Translations under genes and position numbers: made by a program
Notes under the pieces: generated by a model
The model's database searches: none
Told to the model about the DNA's origin: nothing
Seen by the model: the letters and a program-made list of their open reading frames with translations, nothing else
DNA from: Candidatus Jorgensenbacteria bacterium
Lineage (GTDB): Bacteria > Patescibacteriota > Minisyncoccia > UBA6257 > GWB1-50-10
Assembly (NCBI GenBank): GCA_011050075.1
Contig: DRGK01000017.1
Coordinates: 39,838 to 103,837 of the forward strand
DNA length: 64,000 nt
Direction: 5' to 3'
In this document: positions 6,434 to 16,354 of the stretch, one piece after another
How positions within the stretch are numbered: position 1 is the stretch's first letter
Layout: each line of letters begins with the position of its first letter

Positions 6434-7615
6434 ATGCGCTTACTGCACCATCAATACTACTTTCACTTATTTACGCTGCGTAATAAGGAGATAGACGCGC
6501 TCTATATTGCATTAGCGCTTATTAACTTCGCAGTCGGACTTATTAGCATCTTTGTACCCGTGTATTTTTGGGAACTTGGTATTCCGCTGTGGCAGATCAT
6601 CTTCTTCTATTTTCTGCGGGCAGTTTATTATGTCGCTCTGACATTTTTATTGCTCCCGATTATTAAACGGCTGAGCGATAAGATCATGATGTTTTTGGGA
6701 ATTCCGTTCTTAGTTTTGTACTTCATTGGTCTCGGTTTTATGGATGGTACCACATGGTTGTTTTATGTACTGCCGGCAGCGCTTGCGCTCTACGCGCTGT
6801 TTTTTAATGTTGGATACCACATGGACTTTTCTCTGTCGGCTGATGATGGGCGTATTGGAGAAGAGGTTGGCTTAGGTATGGCCATTATCGGTATTTTAAA
6901 GTTTGCCACCCCGTTTTTGGGTGGATTACTGATACTTTTTGTAGGCTTTTCAGGTACTTTTGTAGTCGCGAGTAGTATTCTGCTGCTTGCAGTGATCCCG
7001 TTCTTTTTCATAAAAGGGCGTAAGTTTTCGCCCGATATCAGTGTATCTTCTGTTATAGATACACTGCGTGATAAAACATTTAAATATTTTCATATCGCAA
7101 TGGTTGGGTATGTTATTAATGCCGTTGGTACGGGAGTACTATGGCCACTGTTTCTATTTTTCATCATCGGCAGTATAGAAGGTCTGGGAGGATTGATCTC
7201 ATTGGGCTTACTCCTTGGTGTAGCAACCACGTTCGTGGTTGGTAAACTGGCAGATAAGCATATGGGAAGGGGGATTATGTCAGCGGCTGCTATCGGTGAG
7301 GCTGTGGTATGGTTCGTGCGAGCGGTAACGCAGCAGTTTCCGGTGGTTGTCGGCAGCCACATTGCCAGCGCAATGTTTAAGGATGCACTGTTGCCGATAT
7401 GGACGCGAACATACTACACACTACTGCGCACAAAAAAGAAGTTGGGTATGTACGTACTCGGGCAGGAGGCATCATACAACATTATTCGAATGGTGGTACA
7501 TCCCATTCTGATGTTGATGGCGTATATATTGCCGTTGGACCAGTTCTTTACCGTTTCGTTTTTACTCATAGGTGCTGCATCATTTCTCTTTATGGCGATA
7601 AATCACAGCTCGTAG
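6434..7615 (+). CDS. Polytopic membrane protein, MFS-like transporter
   Basis: 393 aa with ~10-12 hydrophobic helices; no catalytic motifs. Confidence 0.5.
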   Translation: MRLLHHQYYFHLFTLRNKEIDALYIALALINFAVGLISIFVPVYFWELGIPLWQIIFFYFLRAVYYVALTFLLLPIIKRLSDKIMMFLGIPFLVLYFIGLGFMDGTTWLFYVLPAALALYALFFNVGYHMDFSLSADDGRIGEEVGLGMAIIGILKFATPFLGGLLILFVGFSGTFVVASSILLLAVIPFFFIKGRKFSPDISVSSVIDTLRDKTFKYFHIAMVGYVINAVGTGVLWPLFLFFIIGSIEGLGGLISLGLLLGVATTFVVGKLADKHMGRGIMSAAAIGEAVVWFVRAVTQQFPVVVGSHIASAMFKDALLPIWTRTYYTLLRTKKKLGMYVLGQEASYNIIRMVVHPILMLMAYILPLDQFFTVSFLLIGAASFLFMAINHSS

Positions 7616-10050: not shown

Positions 10051-10689
10051 TTATTTAAATATGTCCTTGTTATTTTTTAACATATTTTCATACTCGTTGA
10101 CAATGTCGTTATCCAGTCCTTGTTTCAAGACAAGTAGAAGTTCTTCATAATACAGCAACTTCTTATCCTTCGGTTGGTGGAACTTTTTCCACATAGCGTC
10201 TCCTTCAATCTTGTGATAATCAATCAACGATTGGATGTTGTGTATCTTGTCTGCCGCTGCAACAAAAAACGAGCCTTCTTCAGCTCGCCTTAGATTTTCA
10301 ATATATTGTTTTAAGCTATCGGTTATTGTGACTCCTTCTACAATGTTCGTTACTCGCTGTCCAAACTCCTTTACCATTTTTTCTTTTGTGTACTCTGGGA
10401 CATCTTCCAGTATATCGTGTAAAAGACCTGCAATGATAATGTCTTCGTCATCCGTGTAGTTGGATAATATGACTGCGACAGAAAATGGATGCACAACATA
10501 TGGATAACCACCATTTCTTCTCTCCTGATTCTTATGTAAAACAGCGGATGTATTTATAGCTTTCTGTATTTCAGGCGTTAGTTTAAACATTCTGTAGTTT
10601 AGTATATCAAATTTGGTGCGCGATGCTACTTGTGAGTTATAATAAAAACAATGCAGAGCGAGATAAAACGGTGTCAGAACTGTAAACAA
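10051..10689 (-). CDS. HD-domain hydrolase of the RelA/SpoT (RSH) family, small alarmone hydrolase-like
   Basis: HPFSVAVIL…LLHDILEDV matches the SpoT HD motif (HPLEVA…LLHDxVED); no synthetase domain. The start is probably the internal Met (MFKLTPEIQKA…, ~10590), because the long ORF start overlaps the divergent gene at 10651. Confidence 0.7.
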   Translation of the reverse strand: MFTVLTPFYLALHCFYYNSQVASRTKFDILNYRMFKLTPEIQKAINTSAVLHKNQERRNGGYPYVVHPFSVAVILSNYTDDEDIIIAGLLHDILEDVPEYTKEKMVKEFGQRVTNIVEGVTITDSLKQYIENLRRAEEGSFFVAAADKIHNIQSLIDYHKIEGDAMWKKFHQPKDKKLLYYEELLLVLKQGLDNDIVNEYENMLKNNKDIFK

Positions 10690-12438
10690 GAGTTCACTAT
10701 TGAACCTGACGACTTTGTATTTTACGAGAAAATAGACGTTCCGCCTCCAACATGGTGTCCGGAGTGTAGGCTCATCAGGCGACTTTGTTTTAATAACCAG
10801 CGAAGCTTATACAAGCGGGAATGTAACCTCTGTAAGAACGCCACTATCTCTATGTACTCATCAGATGCACCGTTTCCCGTGTACTGTCCACGGTGCTGGT
10901 GGTCCGATGATTGGGACCCAATGGAGTACGGTAGAGAATACGATTTTTCAAAATCACTCCTTGAGCAGATACGAGAACTCCAACTGGTAACACCAGTTCC
11001 AGCACTCTCAACTCGTCACCAGACACTCACCAACAGTGAGTACGTCAACATGGCGCACAATTTGAAGAACTGCTATTTGCTATTCAACTCTGACTATGAC
11101 GAAGGGTGTGCATACGGTTCTGAGGTAGAGAACTCGGAGGATTCATTTGACATGATGATGGCAGAATCGTGTCACCTGTCTTATGAGAGTATAAACTGTA
11201 TTAAGTGTTACAGAACCTTCTTTTCTGTGGACTGCAAGGACAGCCAAGATATCTGGTTTTCAAGAAACTTAGTGAACTGCACGAACTGCTTTGGGTGTAC
11301 TAACCTACGTAACAAGAAGTACTACATATTCAATGAGCCACACACAGAAGAGGAGTATCTCGAGAAATTGAAGGAGTTTAATCTTGGCTCTAAGAAGAGC
11401 ATACAAACTGCAAAAGAAAAAGCTCTTGAACTCCACATGAAGTTCCCACGCAAGTTTATGCATGGGAGCCATAATGTTGACGTATCTGGTGACTACGTAC
11501 ATAACTCAAAGGACGTCCACAACACTTTTATTGGAACGGGGTCCGAGCACTGCAGGTATTGTATGTGGTTAATCATTAAAGGAAACAAGGACTGCTACGA
11601 CTTCACCCAGTTTGGAGAAAATACGCAGAATGTGTATGAAACGGTGGGTAGCGGTATTAACCTAAACAATGTTAAGTTCAGTGCCATCTGTGTGGGGGAC
11701 GTACACAACGTTGAGTACACACAGCACTGTTTCGGAGGAGCATATCTCCTCGCCTGCATCGGCTTACGCAACAAACAACACTGCATCCTCAATAAACAGT
11801 ACAGTAAGGAATCCTTCGACAAGCTCAGGGCAGGTGTAATCGAACATATGAACACTATACCGTACACAGATAATAGTGGAAGAACGTACAGGTACGGAGA
11901 GTTCTTTCCCTCAGAACTTTCACCCTTCGCGTACAACGAGACCATCGCTCAGGAATACTTCCCGCTAACAAAGAAAGAAGCAGAAGAACAAGGATACCTG
12001 TGGCGCGAACCAGACACTAAGGATCACAAAATCACAAAGAATGTAGATAGTCTTCCAGACCACATCAGCGACATAGACGACGGCATTCTCAAGGAAACTA
12101 TTGGTTGTGAACACGAAGGAAAGTGTAACGAGCAGTGCACGACTGCTTTCAAGGTAATTTCCTCAGAACTCCAGTTCTACAAGAAAATGAACCTCCCGCT
12201 CCCAAGACTATGTCCAAACTGCAGGCATTACCAACGTCTCAAGCAGCGGAATCCACTGCAGCTCTGTCACCGGAAGTGCACGTGCGATGGTGTGAAATCG
12301 GAGAACGGTGCGTACAAGAACACAGCTGAGCACTTCCACGGCACTGACCACTGTCCCAATGAGTTTGAAACTCCATACGCACCAGAGCGAAAGGAAATAG
12401 TTTACTGCGAGCAGTGTTATCAGACAGAAGTGGTTTAA
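10651..12438 (+). CDS. Large cysteine-rich protein (595 aa) with paired zinc-ribbon motifs at both termini; function unknown
   Basis: N-terminal CQNCKQ…CPECR and CNLCKN…CPRCW; C-terminal CPNCRHY…CHRKCTC and CPNEF…CEQCY; internal repeated NCxxC units; no signal peptide; TATAAT 8 nt upstream of the ATG. Confidence 0.6.
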   Translation: MQSEIKRCQNCKQEFTIEPDDFVFYEKIDVPPPTWCPECRLIRRLCFNNQRSLYKRECNLCKNATISMYSSDAPFPVYCPRCWWSDDWDPMEYGREYDFSKSLLEQIRELQLVTPVPALSTRHQTLTNSEYVNMAHNLKNCYLLFNSDYDEGCAYGSEVENSEDSFDMMMAESCHLSYESINCIKCYRTFFSVDCKDSQDIWFSRNLVNCTNCFGCTNLRNKKYYIFNEPHTEEEYLEKLKEFNLGSKKSIQTAKEKALELHMKFPRKFMHGSHNVDVSGDYVHNSKDVHNTFIGTGSEHCRYCMWLIIKGNKDCYDFTQFGENTQNVYETVGSGINLNNVKFSAICVGDVHNVEYTQHCFGGAYLLACIGLRNKQHCILNKQYSKESFDKLRAGVIEHMNTIPYTDNSGRTYRYGEFFPSELSPFAYNETIAQEYFPLTKKEAEEQGYLWREPDTKDHKITKNVDSLPDHISDIDDGILKETIGCEHEGKCNEQCTTAFKVISSELQFYKKMNLPLPRLCPNCRHYQRLKQRNPLQLCHRKCTCDGVKSENGAYKNTAEHFHGTDHCPNEFETPYAPERKEIVYCEQCYQTEVV

Positions 12439-13037
12439 GAAAGCTTCTTTATGTTCTCCAGTAGTTCAGGAAATTCTTCCTGATTGAAATGCTCTCTGTC
12501 TTTGAATACGTACAGCTTTGCCCTAGGCAGCTGTTCTTTATATTTTTTGGCATCAATAAATGTAACAACAGGGTCGTCCTCACTGTGGTAGATAAAAACG
12601 TTACCACCTTGTGTGCTAAGTTTTTTAAGGTTTTTGGGCAATACAAAATCATTCAGTGAGTACTCTGAGTTTTTATCATCATACGGAGGCGCGATAAGAT
12701 ATGTTGCCCGTATCTTTTTAGGAAAATCGTTTTCAGATAAGTACTTTACTAAGAAAATGCCTCCCAATGAGTGTCCTATGAGCACGATGTTATCTCGTAG
12801 GAAGGGGAGGAGCTTTTCAAACCATATCTTCCACTCGTTGTACTTGGCGTTATTGGGATTCGGCATCTTTGGGATAATAATATCAAACGTTTCTTCAAGT
12901 TCGGTTTTGAGCCAGCTCTTCCAACCCTTACGTCCCAGGCGTTCAAAATCAAGCTCAAGATTTTTGAGATCGCTAAGATACTCATCATACGTATCAAACG
13001 TGCTTCCTCCGTTAATGATTAGTATTTGTTGCTTCAT
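12435..13037 (-). CDS. Alpha/beta-fold serine hydrolase (YdeN/RBBP9-like esterase)
   Basis: Nucleophile elbow GHSLGG; ~200 aa. Start taken at the internal Met (MKQQILIINGG), which abuts the upstream gene. Confidence 0.6.
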   Translation of the reverse strand: MKQQILIINGGSTFDTYDEYLSDLKNLELDFERLGRKGWKSWLKTELEETFDIIIPKMPNPNNAKYNEWKIWFEKLLPFLRDNIVLIGHSLGGIFLVKYLSENDFPKKIRATYLIAPPYDDKNSEYSLNDFVLPKNLKKLSTQGGNVFIYHSEDDPVVTFIDAKKYKEQLPRAKLYVFKDREHFNQEEFPELLENIKKLS

Positions 13038-13387: not shown

Positions 13388-14152
13388 TTATAGATACTCA
13401 AGCAGGCGATCATAGTTAATAAAATCAAGCCACTGATAGCCATACTGAATGACAAGTCCGAAATTGTCGGTTGCAAGAAGGATTCCTAAGAAGATTAAGA
13501 ATATACCTCCTACAACAGAAACCGTTTTGAGATACTTTGAAATCTTTTCAATATACACTGTAGCTTTTGAAAAGAGGGCTGCGATAGCAAGAAACGGCAG
13601 TGCAAGTCCTGCAGAGAATACAGTGAGCATAAAACCTCCTTCAAGTGCCGTACCTGATGTTCCCGCGAGAAAAAGAACGGATCCTAAAATAGGACCTACG
13701 CATGGCGTCCAACCAAGAGCGAAGGTTCCACCGATAAAAAGGGAACTAAATGGCTTGCCGAGCGTAAGCCATTTAGGAATTGGTATGCGTTTGTCACCTT
13801 GAAAAAAGGGAAGCTTGAAAAAACCGAGCATAAAAAGACCGAAAAGGATGACAAAAATACCGCCTAATCGAGCAAACCAAATACGGTATGGCGCGAGCAC
13901 GGCTCCTGCAAATCCTGCCATTACGCCAAAGAAAATAAATACTGCAGAAAAACCACCTATAAACGCTAGACCGTTCAAAAATATTTTACGGCGGGCACCC
14001 CGAGCGGTCTTTGGATTTTTAAGCGCTTCACTATCAACACCACTAATAAAACCCAGATATGCCGGCAAAATGGGAAGTGTGCAGGGGGCAAGGAAGGTAA
14101 GAATTCCCGCAAAAAAAGCTGCTGCAATAAATCCAACACTTATCTCAATCAT
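13388..14152 (-). CDS. ccdA: Cytochrome c-type biogenesis protein CcdA (DsbD-family thiol-disulfide membrane transporter)
   Basis: 6 TM; conserved Cys pair motifs (FLAPCTLPILPAYLGF and WTPCVGPILGSVL). Confidence 0.8.
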   Translation of the reverse strand: MIEISVGFIAAAFFAGILTFLAPCTLPILPAYLGFISGVDSEALKNPKTARGARRKIFLNGLAFIGGFSAVFIFFGVMAGFAGAVLAPYRIWFARLGGIFVILFGLFMLGFFKLPFFQGDKRIPIPKWLTLGKPFSSLFIGGTFALGWTPCVGPILGSVLFLAGTSGTALEGGFMLTVFSAGLALPFLAIAALFSKATVYIEKISKYLKTVSVVGGIFLIFLGILLATDNFGLVIQYGYQWLDFINYDRLLEYL

Positions 14153-14685
14153 AATGAAGCCTCGTTAATGCTTATAATCTTTTCTGTATGTTCTCGCATT
14201 TCATTTAAGTCCATAGGCCCACGCTTGTGCACAACAATATCTCCATCTTCATTCACAAAAATAGTTTCTGGCATTGAGAATCCGCCTATCGATTTATAAA
14301 ACGAATCAGATGGATCGAGAAGAAATACCATATCGTTGGTAATATCTAACTCGTCCGTATACCCTTTTACTTTTTCTAAGGGTTCTTGTCGGTCAATTGC
14401 GATAACAGTGATGCGGTCTCCAAATTCTTTTTGGAGTCCTGAAAAATCAGAAAGTTCTTCTCGACAGAAGGGACACCACACCGCCCAACTGTTTATGACA
14501 ACCGGTCTTCCTTTAAACTCTGCAAGTGAAACAGTATTCCCTTCATAGGAGATTAAAGAAATATGAGTGAGTCGTTCAAAGTCACTTTGAATTGTGTCTG
14601 TCTCAATATTGCGATTTGGTAGTACGAAAAATAATACTCCTGCGATAATAATGACGCCTATGCCAATAATAATATTTCGCTGCAT
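14149..14685 (-). CDS. Thioredoxin-fold thiol-disulfide oxidoreductase (TlpA/ResA family), membrane-anchored
   Basis: N-terminal anchor; active site WCPFC inside a thioredoxin fold; translationally coupled to ccdA. Confidence 0.8.
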   Translation of the reverse strand: MQRNIIIGIGVIIIAGVLFFVLPNRNIETDTIQSDFERLTHISLISYEGNTVSLAEFKGRPVVINSWAVWCPFCREELSDFSGLQKEFGDRITVIAIDRQEPLEKVKGYTDELDITNDMVFLLDPSDSFYKSIGGFSMPETIFVNEDGDIVVHKRGPMDLNEMREHTEKIISINEASL

Positions 14686-14708
14686 ATCACACTAATTATT
14701 ACAAACAA

Positions 14709-15329
14709 CTAGAAACCTCCAGGGTCCGTTTGTACGCCACGAACTTTTTCCGGCCCACGATTATCATACCGACGAATAAAATCTTCGATGCGCTGTTCAT
14801 CAACTGCGCCGTTTTCAATATTGAACGTATCAACACGACCCCACGCAACAAGTGAAATATCTCCTTCGTTTTCTGAGCGCGGAGACACAATAACATATCG
14901 CCCCGAAAACTTTTTAAGTACAGACTTTGATGTATCACTTATTCGTGGATGATACGCAATCCATATATCTCCGTGTTCAAGATTATGAATAACTGTCTCA
15001 TCAGAAATGGATTCATTATAAAAACCTCCGTTGGCAGGTTGTGCGTAATGCCAACCCGAAGACGATGGGTTGGAGTTGTATGGGGAATGTGAAGAACCAC
15101 TGGCAATATGCACTGCTTCTTGAGGGGTATATGCAGTGCTAAAATCTTCTCCTTGTGGAGCAGTTGAACGCATAAAAAGTGATCCACCGTATCCAATAAG
15201 AACAAGAATCACAACCCATATACTGAAGCGTAGTAACGATTTTATTTTTTTTCTAACCAATGCACGTTTACGCTGCTCATTACGTATACGTTCGCGTTCC
15301 TGTTTTTTAATTTCGTAATCGTTTTTCAT
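14709..15329 (-). CDS. Membrane-anchored hypothetical protein (basic N-terminal tail, one TM, extracytoplasmic domain)
   Basis: MKNDYEIKKQERERIRNEQRKR…TM…; the start at 15329 avoids overlap with the upstream gene. Confidence 0.45.
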   Translation of the reverse strand: MKNDYEIKKQERERIRNEQRKRALVRKKIKSLLRFSIWVVILVLIGYGGSLFMRSTAPQGEDFSTAYTPQEAVHIASGSSHSPYNSNPSSSGWHYAQPANGGFYNESISDETVIHNLEHGDIWIAYHPRISDTSKSVLKKFSGRYVIVSPRSENEGDISLVAWGRVDTFNIENGAVDEQRIEDFIRRYDNRGPEKVRGVQTDPGGF

Positions 15330-15340
15330 ATGCCCGATTA

Positions 15341-16354
15341 TTATTGTAATAGTTCTGTTTCCGGGTGCACTGCGAGCCACGAAAACCAGAAACCAGGAAT
15401 GGAGGATAGTGGTTTCTGGTCAGCTTCAAAACGAATTTCACCCGAGTCTGTACGTGTAATAACAATATTTTTTCCGGCGAAGACATCCTCAATCTCTCCT
15501 GCTGTCGTTTTTAACACTTCAGCGGTATAAGCCTTATATTGCCCGTCTATTTCAATACCATGTACAAGCGCCTTGGGATGAAGCCGTGTGTCATCGAATG
15601 TTGCACCGAATGACACCGATTCACTCGTGTAATAATCACCGTATGGATCACGACCATAATTACGTGCTGCTCCCGTGTCTTGCGATAGTACTTTCGTGTC
15701 GGGATGCGCATTTTTCCAGTCACCCCAGCGCACAACATCTGAACGAATGATTGCGAGTTTGTTGCCGGTATACACACCAAGCACTGCCTCTCCTAAAACT
15801 TGCGACCAGAGCGACTCATTTTCTTCACTCTCTGCACGGTTATACATCAATAGATTTGATTGCCACAATCTACCGGATACACCAAACTCCTGCGGTACAC
15901 CATCAACGATAGGGTCAAACACAATTCCCGTAGCACAGAGTGGGCAGTAAGTTACCAGTATAGGTTGTCCTTGGATTGTATCGTTGACAATCTCGTGCCA
16001 GACAAGAATACGGTATGGGTAGAAGCGGCTTTCTTCTCCCACGGTAAGACCGAGTCCCGGGTTAGAGTCTTCAAGAAACGTTGCCTCTTTTACACTGATG
16101 AATTTTGGATTATCAATGGAAGGAATACCGTCCTTTCCGGGTCCTCCTGAGAGAATTTCGTTCAGCGGAATTGAGTGCTTGGTTCCGTCTGTTATAAGAA
16201 TTTCTCTTTGTGATGTCATGGCTTGTATTTCAAAACTCTCATGCTGTTCCTTCAGTCCTGTTGGCAGCGGGAACTGTTTGTTCTGAAAATACCACACTGT
16301 TCCCAGCACACTGATAATTATTAGAATAAAAATAATAATGGTTAGGGGCTTCAT
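15341..16354 (-). CDS. Secreted hypothetical protein with CPLC motif (DUF3179-like)
   Basis: Signal peptide MKPLTIIIFILIIISVLG; …ILVTYCPLCATGIVFD…; same strand as the ccdA/tlpA cluster. Confidence 0.45.
   Translation of the reverse strand: MKPLTIIIFILIIISVLGTVWYFQNKQFPLPTGLKEQHESFEIQAMTSQREILITDGTKHSIPLNEILSGGPGKDGIPSIDNPKFISVKEATFLEDSNPGLGLTVGEESRFYPYRILVWHEIVNDTIQGQPILVTYCPLCATGIVFDPIVDGVPQEFGVSGRLWQSNLLMYNRAESEENESLWSQVLGEAVLGVYTGNKLAIIRSDVVRWGDWKNAHPDTKVLSQDTGAARNYGRDPYGDYYTSESVSFGATFDDTRLHPKALVHGIEIDGQYKAYTAEVLKTTAGEIEDVFAGKNIVITRTDSGEIRFEADQKPLSSIPGFWFSWLAVHPETELLQ

Follow-up and report, generated by a model that had tools for sequence, protein, structure and literature searches.

A large Patescibacteria-restricted family of multi-zinc proteins is genomically coupled to a split VirD4-like ATPase

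We analysed a 64-kb stretch of DNA from a Candidatus Jorgensenbacteria bacterium (contig DRGK01000017.1, positions 39,838 to 103,837), hereafter the window, and followed one open reading frame (ORF) in it, which encodes a cysteine-rich protein of 595 residues. The family that contains this protein is called here by the working name Q. We show that Q is a very large family of multi-zinc proteins of about 590 residues that is restricted to Patescibacteria, and that its genes are linked to those of a conserved VirD4-like ATPase, which is split from its membrane part and shares one zinc module with Q. From sequence and gene order we tentatively predict that this orphan coupling ATPase has Q proteins as its clients, which could be cargo or adaptors. 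Taken singly, the parts are familiar (zinc ribbons and treble-clef modules, a narrow beta-helix, a motor of the type IV coupling protein (T4CP) type); their combination, the scale of the arrays and the link to an orphan T4CP are not described in the searchable literature. A preliminary description of the ORF had given its coordinates (10651..12438, + strand), length and cysteine richness exactly as we find them. The product is identical to HDY73394.1 (ENH86_02370, Ca. Jorgensenbacteria), which is annotated as 'hypothetical protein'. It contains 36 Cys (6.05%), 22 His and nine CxxC motifs; across the 66 remaining long ORFs the mean Cys content is 0.54%, and no other ORF of the window has more than two CxxC motifs.

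Homologues of Q are abundant. A search of 5.8 billion proteins returned at least 7,576 matches, and 5,072 clusters at 50% identity reach E<=1e-3, with 2,188 reaching E<=1e-30. The phyletic distribution, which the preliminary description had proposed to check, is restricted: all reliably named sources are Patescibacteria (Jorgensen-, Staskawicz-, Lipton-, Giovannoni-, Nomura-, Sungii-, Niyogi-, Portnoy- and Curtissbacteria, Paceibacterota and Minisyncoccia). About 30 loci are labelled generically as 'uncultured Candidatus Saccharibacteria' and one as Gammaproteobacteria, and we distrust these labels because they come from mass-binned assemblies. Length and architecture are uniform across the paralogues. 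No match in Pfam, NCBIfam, PADLOC or the PDB sequences describes the whole protein, and named relatives exist only for the zinc modules. With the Foldseek comparisons described below included, no clear match to a characterised family was found; the preliminary description had likewise assigned no family. We also found no description of the family in the searchable literature on PF13451, on cysteine-rich families of the candidate phyla radiation or on tandem paralogues in Parcubacteria. A mobile-element origin was considered and rejected, as no relative was found in 72,556 PLSDB plasmids or 50,697 GenBank phage records.

The genes are often arranged in tandem. Of the 79 Q-centred genome loci, 46 hold between two and six full-length copies, all on one strand and in many cases directly adjoining. 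Inteins or insertions were considered for the match spans of 2.0-2.6 kb at several genome loci and rejected, since tblastn showed abutting paralogues. Within one array the paralogues are 31-51% identical (median 39%), and fragmented copies occur. One close relative of the window protein (P0002) belongs to a locus with 11 copies in 20.7 kb, in a genome with at least 15 full-length and two partial copies. In some Paceibacterota (L165 7719-12155; L166; L167 7836-17808) one or four copies lie between smc and rpsP of the conserved nusB-rnc-smc ... rpsP-khpA-trmD-rpsB-tsf cluster, the slot that ftsY and ffh occupy in Firmicutes; the close relatives P0013 and P0016 have this placement. Genes for DUF3800 proteins (twice) and a PemK-family toxin are situated within or beside Q arrays (L163 1102-1752, 7202-7834; L164 2387-2830).

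The neighbourhood analysis, which gave the main result of this work, revealed a recurrent neighbour cluster with a total of 46 genes in 27 of the 79 Q-centred loci, 26 of these genes directly adjoining Q. The cluster resolves into three families. N1-short is a VirD4/TraD/TrwB-like ATPase of about 490 residues, and N1-long is the same ATPase with a C-terminal tail in which zf_Tbcl_2 and TIGR04272 score above their curated cut-offs. The zinc module of this tail aligns with the N-terminal zinc ribbon of Q (ZnB, Table 1) at a probability of 96.7% (E 4e-10) and does not align with the preceding module, ZnA; for the profile-profile comparisons in this work we used hhalign and, within the family, an alignment of 57 sequences (A1). 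Past the zinc module the tail shows a conserved L-[AG]-D-[LI]-G-I-E-F followed by a long low-complexity region (L039 3911-5908; L062 3807-5993; L018 8249-10312), and some copies of N1-long terminate in ...PGE[TA][IV]KF. The third family, TMp, has 440-550 residues, Trp-rich N-terminal transmembrane (TM) helices and the conserved C-terminal end ...ELATIYHxP...VESKKxGPPAxLP (L012 2836-4215; L039 25-1674; L097 4842-6221). It belongs to no named family in Pfam or NCBIfam; one TMp-like gene (L164) bears a weak precomputed label, DUF8128. TMp resembles a membrane domain that has been separated from the coupling ATPase. In L021 (7817-10219) the two are fused, and the product has the canonical architecture of a T4CP with its membrane anchor.

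For a test in the reverse direction we retrieved 80 metagenomic loci by N1-short alone. Q is present in 66 of them, and in 41 of the 42 that are at least 12 kb long. The median is 4.5 copies per locus and the maximum 12 (up to 12 per 21 kb), all 236 Q matches lie on the strand of the ATPase, and Q occupies 79-91% of the largest loci. Two layouts were seen repeatedly. The first runs Sig4-HARE, TMp, N1-long, Q(n), CutA, N1-short, Q(n) and the second Sig4-HARE, TMp, c16, N1-short, (CutA), Q(n), where Sig4-HARE is a sigma-70-region-4 plus HARE-HTH gene at the head of the clusters. Among the Q-centred loci, units such as TMp-x-Q-N1-Q-N1-Q in L039 have spacings of 0-160 nt, and a close relative of the window protein (P0012) has the order c16, N1-short, five Q, N1-long. 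CutA1 lies between the Q arrays and N1-short in 34 of the 80 loci. The small gene c16, found in 25 of them and always between TMp and N1-short (e.g. L054 3995-4510; L158 3088-3606), encodes a protein of about 170 residues in which an N-terminal TM helix is combined with the Rx4H motif RNDLVH. It matches CARF_HEPN of PADLOC weakly (E 0.0026) and nothing in Pfam or NCBIfam, and could be a membrane-anchored HEPN-like protein. Across loci N1-short keeps an identity of about 87-93%, whereas the best Q matches between the same loci reach only 38-81%.

Tandem Q arrays beside a VirD4-like ATPase make Q proteins good candidates for the clients of this motor. Q would be synthesised in the cytoplasm and then become a client of the N1 ATPase, with the conserved terminal zinc modules as docking elements on the ATPase and the more variable core as payload or specificity surface. 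The terminal modules and the middle segment are indeed more conserved than the core, as judged by column conservation over 151 full-length paralogues, the set also used for the Cys conservation values below. Q could be translocated cargo of an effector- or surface-protein-like kind, or an adaptor by which cargo is delivered to the motor. The C-terminal tails of T4CPs are known partner-docking sites (compare the 'TraM recognition site' of Pfam TraG-D_C). Synthesis in the cytoplasm without a signal peptide had been noted before and agrees with our finding of no hydrophobic N-terminus or TM segment in the protein. A survey of Patescibacteria counted 5,713 VirD4-like T4CPs in 2,918 genomes, only 148 of them near virB4, and noted that t4cp genes typically adjoin the genes of their substrates; in S. 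epibionticum the T4CP is non-essential, and exaptation was suggested (PMC12102498). The substrates of the essential type IV secretion system (T4SS) of Saccharibacteria are not known (PMC12857230).

Several observations weigh against the client prediction. About two thirds of the Q-centred loci have no N1 within 6 kb, and some close relatives sit in the smc-rpsP housekeeping cluster. In the 80 N1-centred loci neither VirB4 nor another T4SS channel family (VirB6, VirB8...) recurs. All paralogues share one rigid architecture, whereas typical effector repertoires mix domains around a common signal. The C-terminus of Q is structured and has no disordered charged tail, and a translocase that unfolds its cargo would have difficulty with tightly folded zinc domains. 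Synteny inflates the linkage counts because the loci are phylogenetically non-independent. Contact between Q and N1 is a conjecture from gene linkage and the shared module. Finally, the 64-kb window contains no second Q paralogue and no N1, TMp-linked, Sig4-HARE or CutA gene, so that a link of this singleton to the ATPase would follow only from its membership of the family.

Known gene-linked clients of VirD4/TraD proteins are relaxases and effectors that share a VirD4-binding domain, for example the XVIPCD effectors of Xanthomonas and the BID-domain Beps of Bartonella. Q resembles them in the absence of a signal peptide, in being encoded beside a T4CP-type ATPase and in combining conserved terminal modules with a more variable body. 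It differs from them in having one fixed architecture and no sequence or structural homology to known T4SS substrates. The Q loci also differ from VirD4/TraD systems in lacking nearby VirB4 or channel genes and in the split of the ATPase from its membrane part, and translocation is predicted only. A functional analogy can be drawn with VirE2 of Agrobacterium, a client of the VirD4 coupling protein of about 60 kDa that consists of two homologous halves. Q is similar in size and is also built of two homologous halves, but VirE2 is a single-copy protein that binds single-stranded DNA and has its own chaperone, and we detected no sequence or fold similarity between the two.

Patescibacteria make up a large share of bacterial diversity, with tiny genomes and a life attached to other cells. 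Some lineages devote at least 20 kb to this one family (11-12 genes in one locus), for which there is no name, Pfam model or solved relative. The role of Patescibacteria T4CPs away from secretion channels has been left open in the literature (PMC12102498), and the directional linkage of Q to the ATPase, together with the shared zinc module, provides a concrete, testable pairing of a motor with a candidate client. Exported Q proteins would be leading candidates for the factors by which episymbiotic bacteria interact with their hosts; Q proteins that stay in the cell would instead define, with the ATPase, a new cytoplasmic system of motor and partner. Under either reading the family merits a family model and a structure with its metals. 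A bolder version, which we regard as speculative and rather doubtful, is that Q arrays are the missing clients of thousands of orphan VirD4-like ATPases in Patescibacteria and form with TMp an unrecognised, VirB4-independent translocation or assembly module, whose cargo would be fast-diversifying, metal- or disulfide-stapled narrow beta-helix proteins at the host-cell interface. As a structural corollary, coils pinned by four inward Cys would give a predicted 'zinc-laddered' solenoid that has no solved precedent.

The ends of the protein carry two pairs of zinc modules (Table 1). The preliminary description had suggested a duplication between the two termini with zinc ribbons at both ends, and all motifs it quoted are present (CQNC 8-11, CPEC 36-39, CNLC 58-61, CPRC 79-82, CPNC 521-524, CEQC 586-589). 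The duplication is confirmed by hhalign, in which residues 9-83 are homologous to 494-590 (99.3%, E 1.8e-20). Taken separately, ZnA (10-49) aligns with ZnA' (495-534) at E 1.7e-16 and ZnB (53-83) with ZnB' (538-590) at E 5.8e-9; no similarity was found by hhalign between ZnA and ZnB. The ZnA motif is F-x-I-x3-D-x2-FY...P-x-P-x2-CPxCR-x2-RR, and its Cys are kept in 95-98% of the paralogues, compared with 94-99% for ZnA' and 99-100% for ZnB'. In ZnB the spacing is exact (C58-x2-C61-x17-C79-x2-C82), but the Cys are kept in just 51-75%, and the site is therefore dispensable, being lost in about half of the paralogues.

Table 1. Features of the Q gene and of its surroundings in the window (positions in the 64-kb stretch; residues of the 595-residue product)
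Feature	Position	Strand	Details
TATAAT hexamer	10638..10643	+	7 nt 5' of the ATG; no Shine-Dalgarno sequence between
Complete ORF, member of family Q	10651..12438	+	ATG start, 595 residues
ZnA, treble-clef-type zinc module	10672..10782	+	residues 8-44; C8, C11, C36, C39
ZnB, CxxC-x17-CxxC zinc ribbon	10807..10899	+	residues 53-83; C58, C61, C79, C82
B1, first central half	11029..11370	+	residues 127-240; hhalign to B2
B2, second central half	11482..11829	+	residues 278-393; B1-like build, register shifts caused by indels
Middle segment (YGEFFP...SPFxYNET...FPLTKEEA)	11857..12096	+	residues 403-482; links B2 to ZnA'
ZnA', C-terminal copy of ZnA	12106..12252	+	residues 486-534; C486, C496, C521, C524
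ZnB', C-terminal copy of ZnB	12262..12420	+	residues 538-590; 22-residue insert; C543, C568, C586, C589
Alpha/beta-hydrolase	12435-13037	-	PF06821 Ser_hydrolase
DsbD_TM/CcdA	13391-14152	-	thiol-redox run
TlpA/ResA-like redoxin	14152-14685	-	thiol-redox run
DUF3105	14712-15380	-	thiol-redox run
DUF3179	15344-16354	-	thiol-redox run

Domain databases recognise these modules only at the margin. The window protein scores 15.1 bits against PF23477 and 14.5 bits against TIGR04272, both at residues 567-592 and below the curated cut-offs of 27 and 36. Among the 57 relatives, 20 match PF23477 zf_Tbcl_2 weakly (best E 1e-6) and 30 match PF13451 zf_Tbcl weakly (best E 3.5e-6), the latter with no match of the window protein itself at E<=10. 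Zinc-ribbon proteins from BFVD superpose at 0.6 A over 40 residues, at a non-significant E-value. The likeness lies in the two-CxxC treble-clef layout of ZnA and ZnA' with their F..FY...P..C..CR signature and in the exact CxxC-x17-CxxC of ZnB; the modules nevertheless cover only about 150 of the 595 residues. A match of the zf_Tbcl type names a fold and not a role, because such modules have no known molecular function. The CxxC-x17-CxxC domain type has been found by inductively coupled plasma mass spectrometry to bind zinc in small proteins of M. mazei (PMC12704099).

A different view of these modules is that Q is a strictly cytoplasmic zinc-finger protein that binds nucleic acid or has a regulatory role. 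Its Arg-rich helices (CPxCR-x2-RR...RN) would contact DNA or RNA, and the ATPase link would reflect joint nucleic-acid handling. T4CPs are DNA-binding motors of the FtsK/HerA type, and N1 matches the TrwB 'DNA-binding domain' family and, weakly, the DNA-translocating ATPase CedD. In Q itself R40, R44 and R525, beside the second zinc knuckle, are 95-100% conserved. The Sig4-HARE gene at the cluster heads and the relatives that lie among genes for RNase III, SMC, S16, KhpA and TrmD point in the same direction. On the other hand, Q matches no nucleic-acid-binding family or structure, its zinc modules are overall not markedly basic, and 10-12 diverged paralogues per array would be unusual for DNA- or RNA-binding housekeeping factors. 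The preliminary description had arrived at metal or redox sensing or nucleic-acid binding partly through the divergent neighbour, a (p)ppGpp hydrolase homologue. This adjacency is not conserved: no window neighbour recurs in the 79 genome loci or in the loci of the closest relatives, so that the hydrolase carries no signal as a clue, and beyond the presence of zinc modules we found no specific support for either role. We consider nucleic-acid binding rather unlikely as the function of Q.

It could also be asked whether the clusters are an inter-organism conflict or anti-phage system, in which a HerA/FtsK-type ATPase works with diversified intracellular sensor or effector paralogues. N1 weakly matches the mad8 and HerA models of PADLOC, the HEPN-like Rx4H motif of the small membrane protein c16 is found in 25 loci, and some arrays include genes for a PemK toxin and DUF3800 proteins. 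The rapid turnover of the paralogues and the distant core relatives carried by phage genomes would fit as well. However, Q has no PADLOC match at all, and known defence systems are not made of 5-12 uniform paralogues. The HEPN assignment of c16 is weak (E 0.0026, no Pfam match), N1-short (up to 96% identical) is far more conserved than typical defence genes, and the clusters adjoin SecDF and other core genes and are not obvious defence islands. A defence role is unlikely on this evidence.

Between the terminal modules lies a core of two homologous halves of about 110 residues each, B1 (127-240) and B2 (278-393), which align by hhalign at 99.7% (E 1.4e-26). The preliminary description had reported recurring [NH]CxxC units in this region. 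Three such units are present (182-186, 209-213, 300-304), and the internal repeat check shows that the region is better described by the two halves. B1 is built of a beta-hairpin, a region with a ladder of Cys and Ser in strict 3-residue register, the cap motif FGCxNLRNKxYxIFN..Y[ST]KEEY and a helix; both halves end with FGCxxLRNKxYxI[FL]N..Y[ST]KEEY and then a helix. The Cys-enriched columns of B1 (132, 141, 153, 165, 168, 177, 183, 186, 195, 198, 207, 210, 213, 216, 225) fall in one period-3 register. Small residues make up 65% of this phase and Cys 31%; in the other two, small residues make up 14-17% and Cys 0%. The register has autocorrelations of 0.61 (lag 3) and 0.64 (lag 12), neither of which was reached in any of 5,000 shuffles. 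B2 has the same pattern with register shifts. The core residues C210, C213 and C216 of B1 and C369 and C378 of B2 are 87-98% conserved.

The period-3 register of Cys and small residues suggests a very narrow beta-helix with 12 residues per coil. In such a fold C207, C210, C213 and C216 would fill all four inward positions of one coil. The 12-residue periodicity with a small residue or Cys at every third position is similar to TmAFP of Tenebrio molitor (PDB 1ezg, PF02420), a Cys-laddered beta-helix of 12 residues per coil with the repeat T-C-T-x-S-x-x-C-x-x-A-x; judged by this repeat, the register of Q is the inward-facing one. No match of Q to TmAFP or PF02420 was found by hidden Markov model or by structure. 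AlphaFold2 on alignment A1 gave a predicted local distance difference test score (pLDDT) of 86 and a predicted template modelling score of 0.86. The zinc modules and the middle segment are mostly above pLDDT 90, and the Cys-register regions at 62-73. Foldseek found no significant match of the model in the PDB or in BFVD; the structural neighbours found, none of them significant, are only beta-solenoids, including curli CsgA and phage fibre proteins. Two other readings of the core found no support. A ferredoxin [4Fe-4S] site was rejected: C210-x2-C213-x2-C216 is followed by TNLRNK and not by xxxCP, and there is no Fer4 match in Pfam or ferredoxin context. A left-handed beta-helix of the hexapeptide acyltransferases is not indicated either, as neither Hexapep repeats in Pfam nor a significant structural match was found.

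The middle segment (403-482) is rich in aromatic residues and proline and has little regular secondary structure. Its column entropy is low, with G416, P420 and Y428 invariant, and pLDDT is 89-96 over most of it and 80 near residues 451-460. We found no relatives of this segment outside the Q family.

In IMG/VR only three distant matches were found, all to the B1 half-domain. The matched proteins are small, come from phages, consist of (CxxCxx)n repeats closed by a cap motif shared with B1, and belong to PHROG 15341, whose function is not known. The window protein matches phrog_15341 at E 0.0023 over residues 124-218, with a confidence limited by low-complexity composition, and hhalign of B1 with a phage protein gives 96.3% (E 1.5e-9), a score that low complexity inflates. 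The phage proteins share with B1 the period-3 Cys register and the cap motif C-x-G-L-x-[DN]-K-x-Y-x-I-x-N...EEY. They differ from Q in their size of 150-250 residues, in being nearly pure repeats and in having neither terminal zinc modules nor a middle segment. Such proteins on IMG/VR contigs (L080 3777-4241, L082 7407-8174) consist almost wholly of CxxCxx repeats, e.g. CTYCTNCKDCTG..., and the repetitive DNA of these genes also gives rise to long ORFs that are spurious, both in the remaining frames of the strand and on the complementary one.

The shape of the protein raises the question whether Q is a self-assembling structural protein. Beta-helix cores would stack, the zinc modules at the ends would pair head to tail, and different paralogues would polymerise together as a filament or scaffold, which the ATPase might assemble or extrude. 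The homologous modules at both ends, the pseudo-two-fold core, the uniform length and architecture and the exclusively beta-solenoid neighbours are what one would expect of such a protein, and there is a precedent for structure-building paralogue arrays in the essential array of six divergent VirB2-like pilins of Saccharibacteria (PMC12857230). We find no homology to known filament formers, though, the AlphaFold2 core is only moderately confident, oligomers are hypothetical, and assembly of this kind seems very unlikely. Least probable, by a small margin, is a high-capacity thiol or metal (zinc or copper) buffer or store linked to the divalent-cation-tolerance protein CutA1: the 36 Cys and 22 His per protein, the up to four Cys filling the inward positions of one coil, the pure (CxxCxx)n phage relatives and the place of CutA1 between Q arrays and N1-short would suit it, but metal stores are usually small and simple in composition, Q has large conserved non-Cys regions and has lost the ZnB site in half of the paralogues, the function of CutA is itself unclear, and the ATPase linkage and shared zinc module would be left unexplained.

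Turning to the gene in the window, the TATAAT box described earlier is present upstream of the ATG (Table 1), and the start of the ORF is possibly leaderless. The hexamer alone is weak promoter evidence, because a two-hexamer sigma-70 scan upstream of the ORF found no promoter. The divergent neighbour is an HD-domain protein (PF13328 HD_4, E 7e-16). Its longest call (10051-10689, - strand) has a TTG start at 10689 and overlaps the start of Q by 39 nt. With the more likely start, an ATG at 10590 (MFKLTPEIQ...), there is no overlap, and the divergent intergenic region before the Q ORF is 60 nt long. At the other end, the stop of Q and that of the convergent alpha/beta-hydrolase gene overlap by 4 nt (12435-12438), and no convincing terminator was found between the two genes. 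Neighbours in the window include RarA/MgsA, a cyclophilin, the HD-domain protein, the alpha/beta hydrolase, a CsaA-like tRNA-binding protein, DsbD_TM and a redoxin. An ORF of 393 codons at 6434-7615 (+) has no Pfam match at E<=0.001. About 1 kb downstream of Q begins a run of envelope thiol-redox genes (13388-16354, - strand). In E. coli cutA1 shares one locus with dsbD, and CutA1 genes recur beside other Q arrays; the presence of this run near the window copy may be a coincidence.

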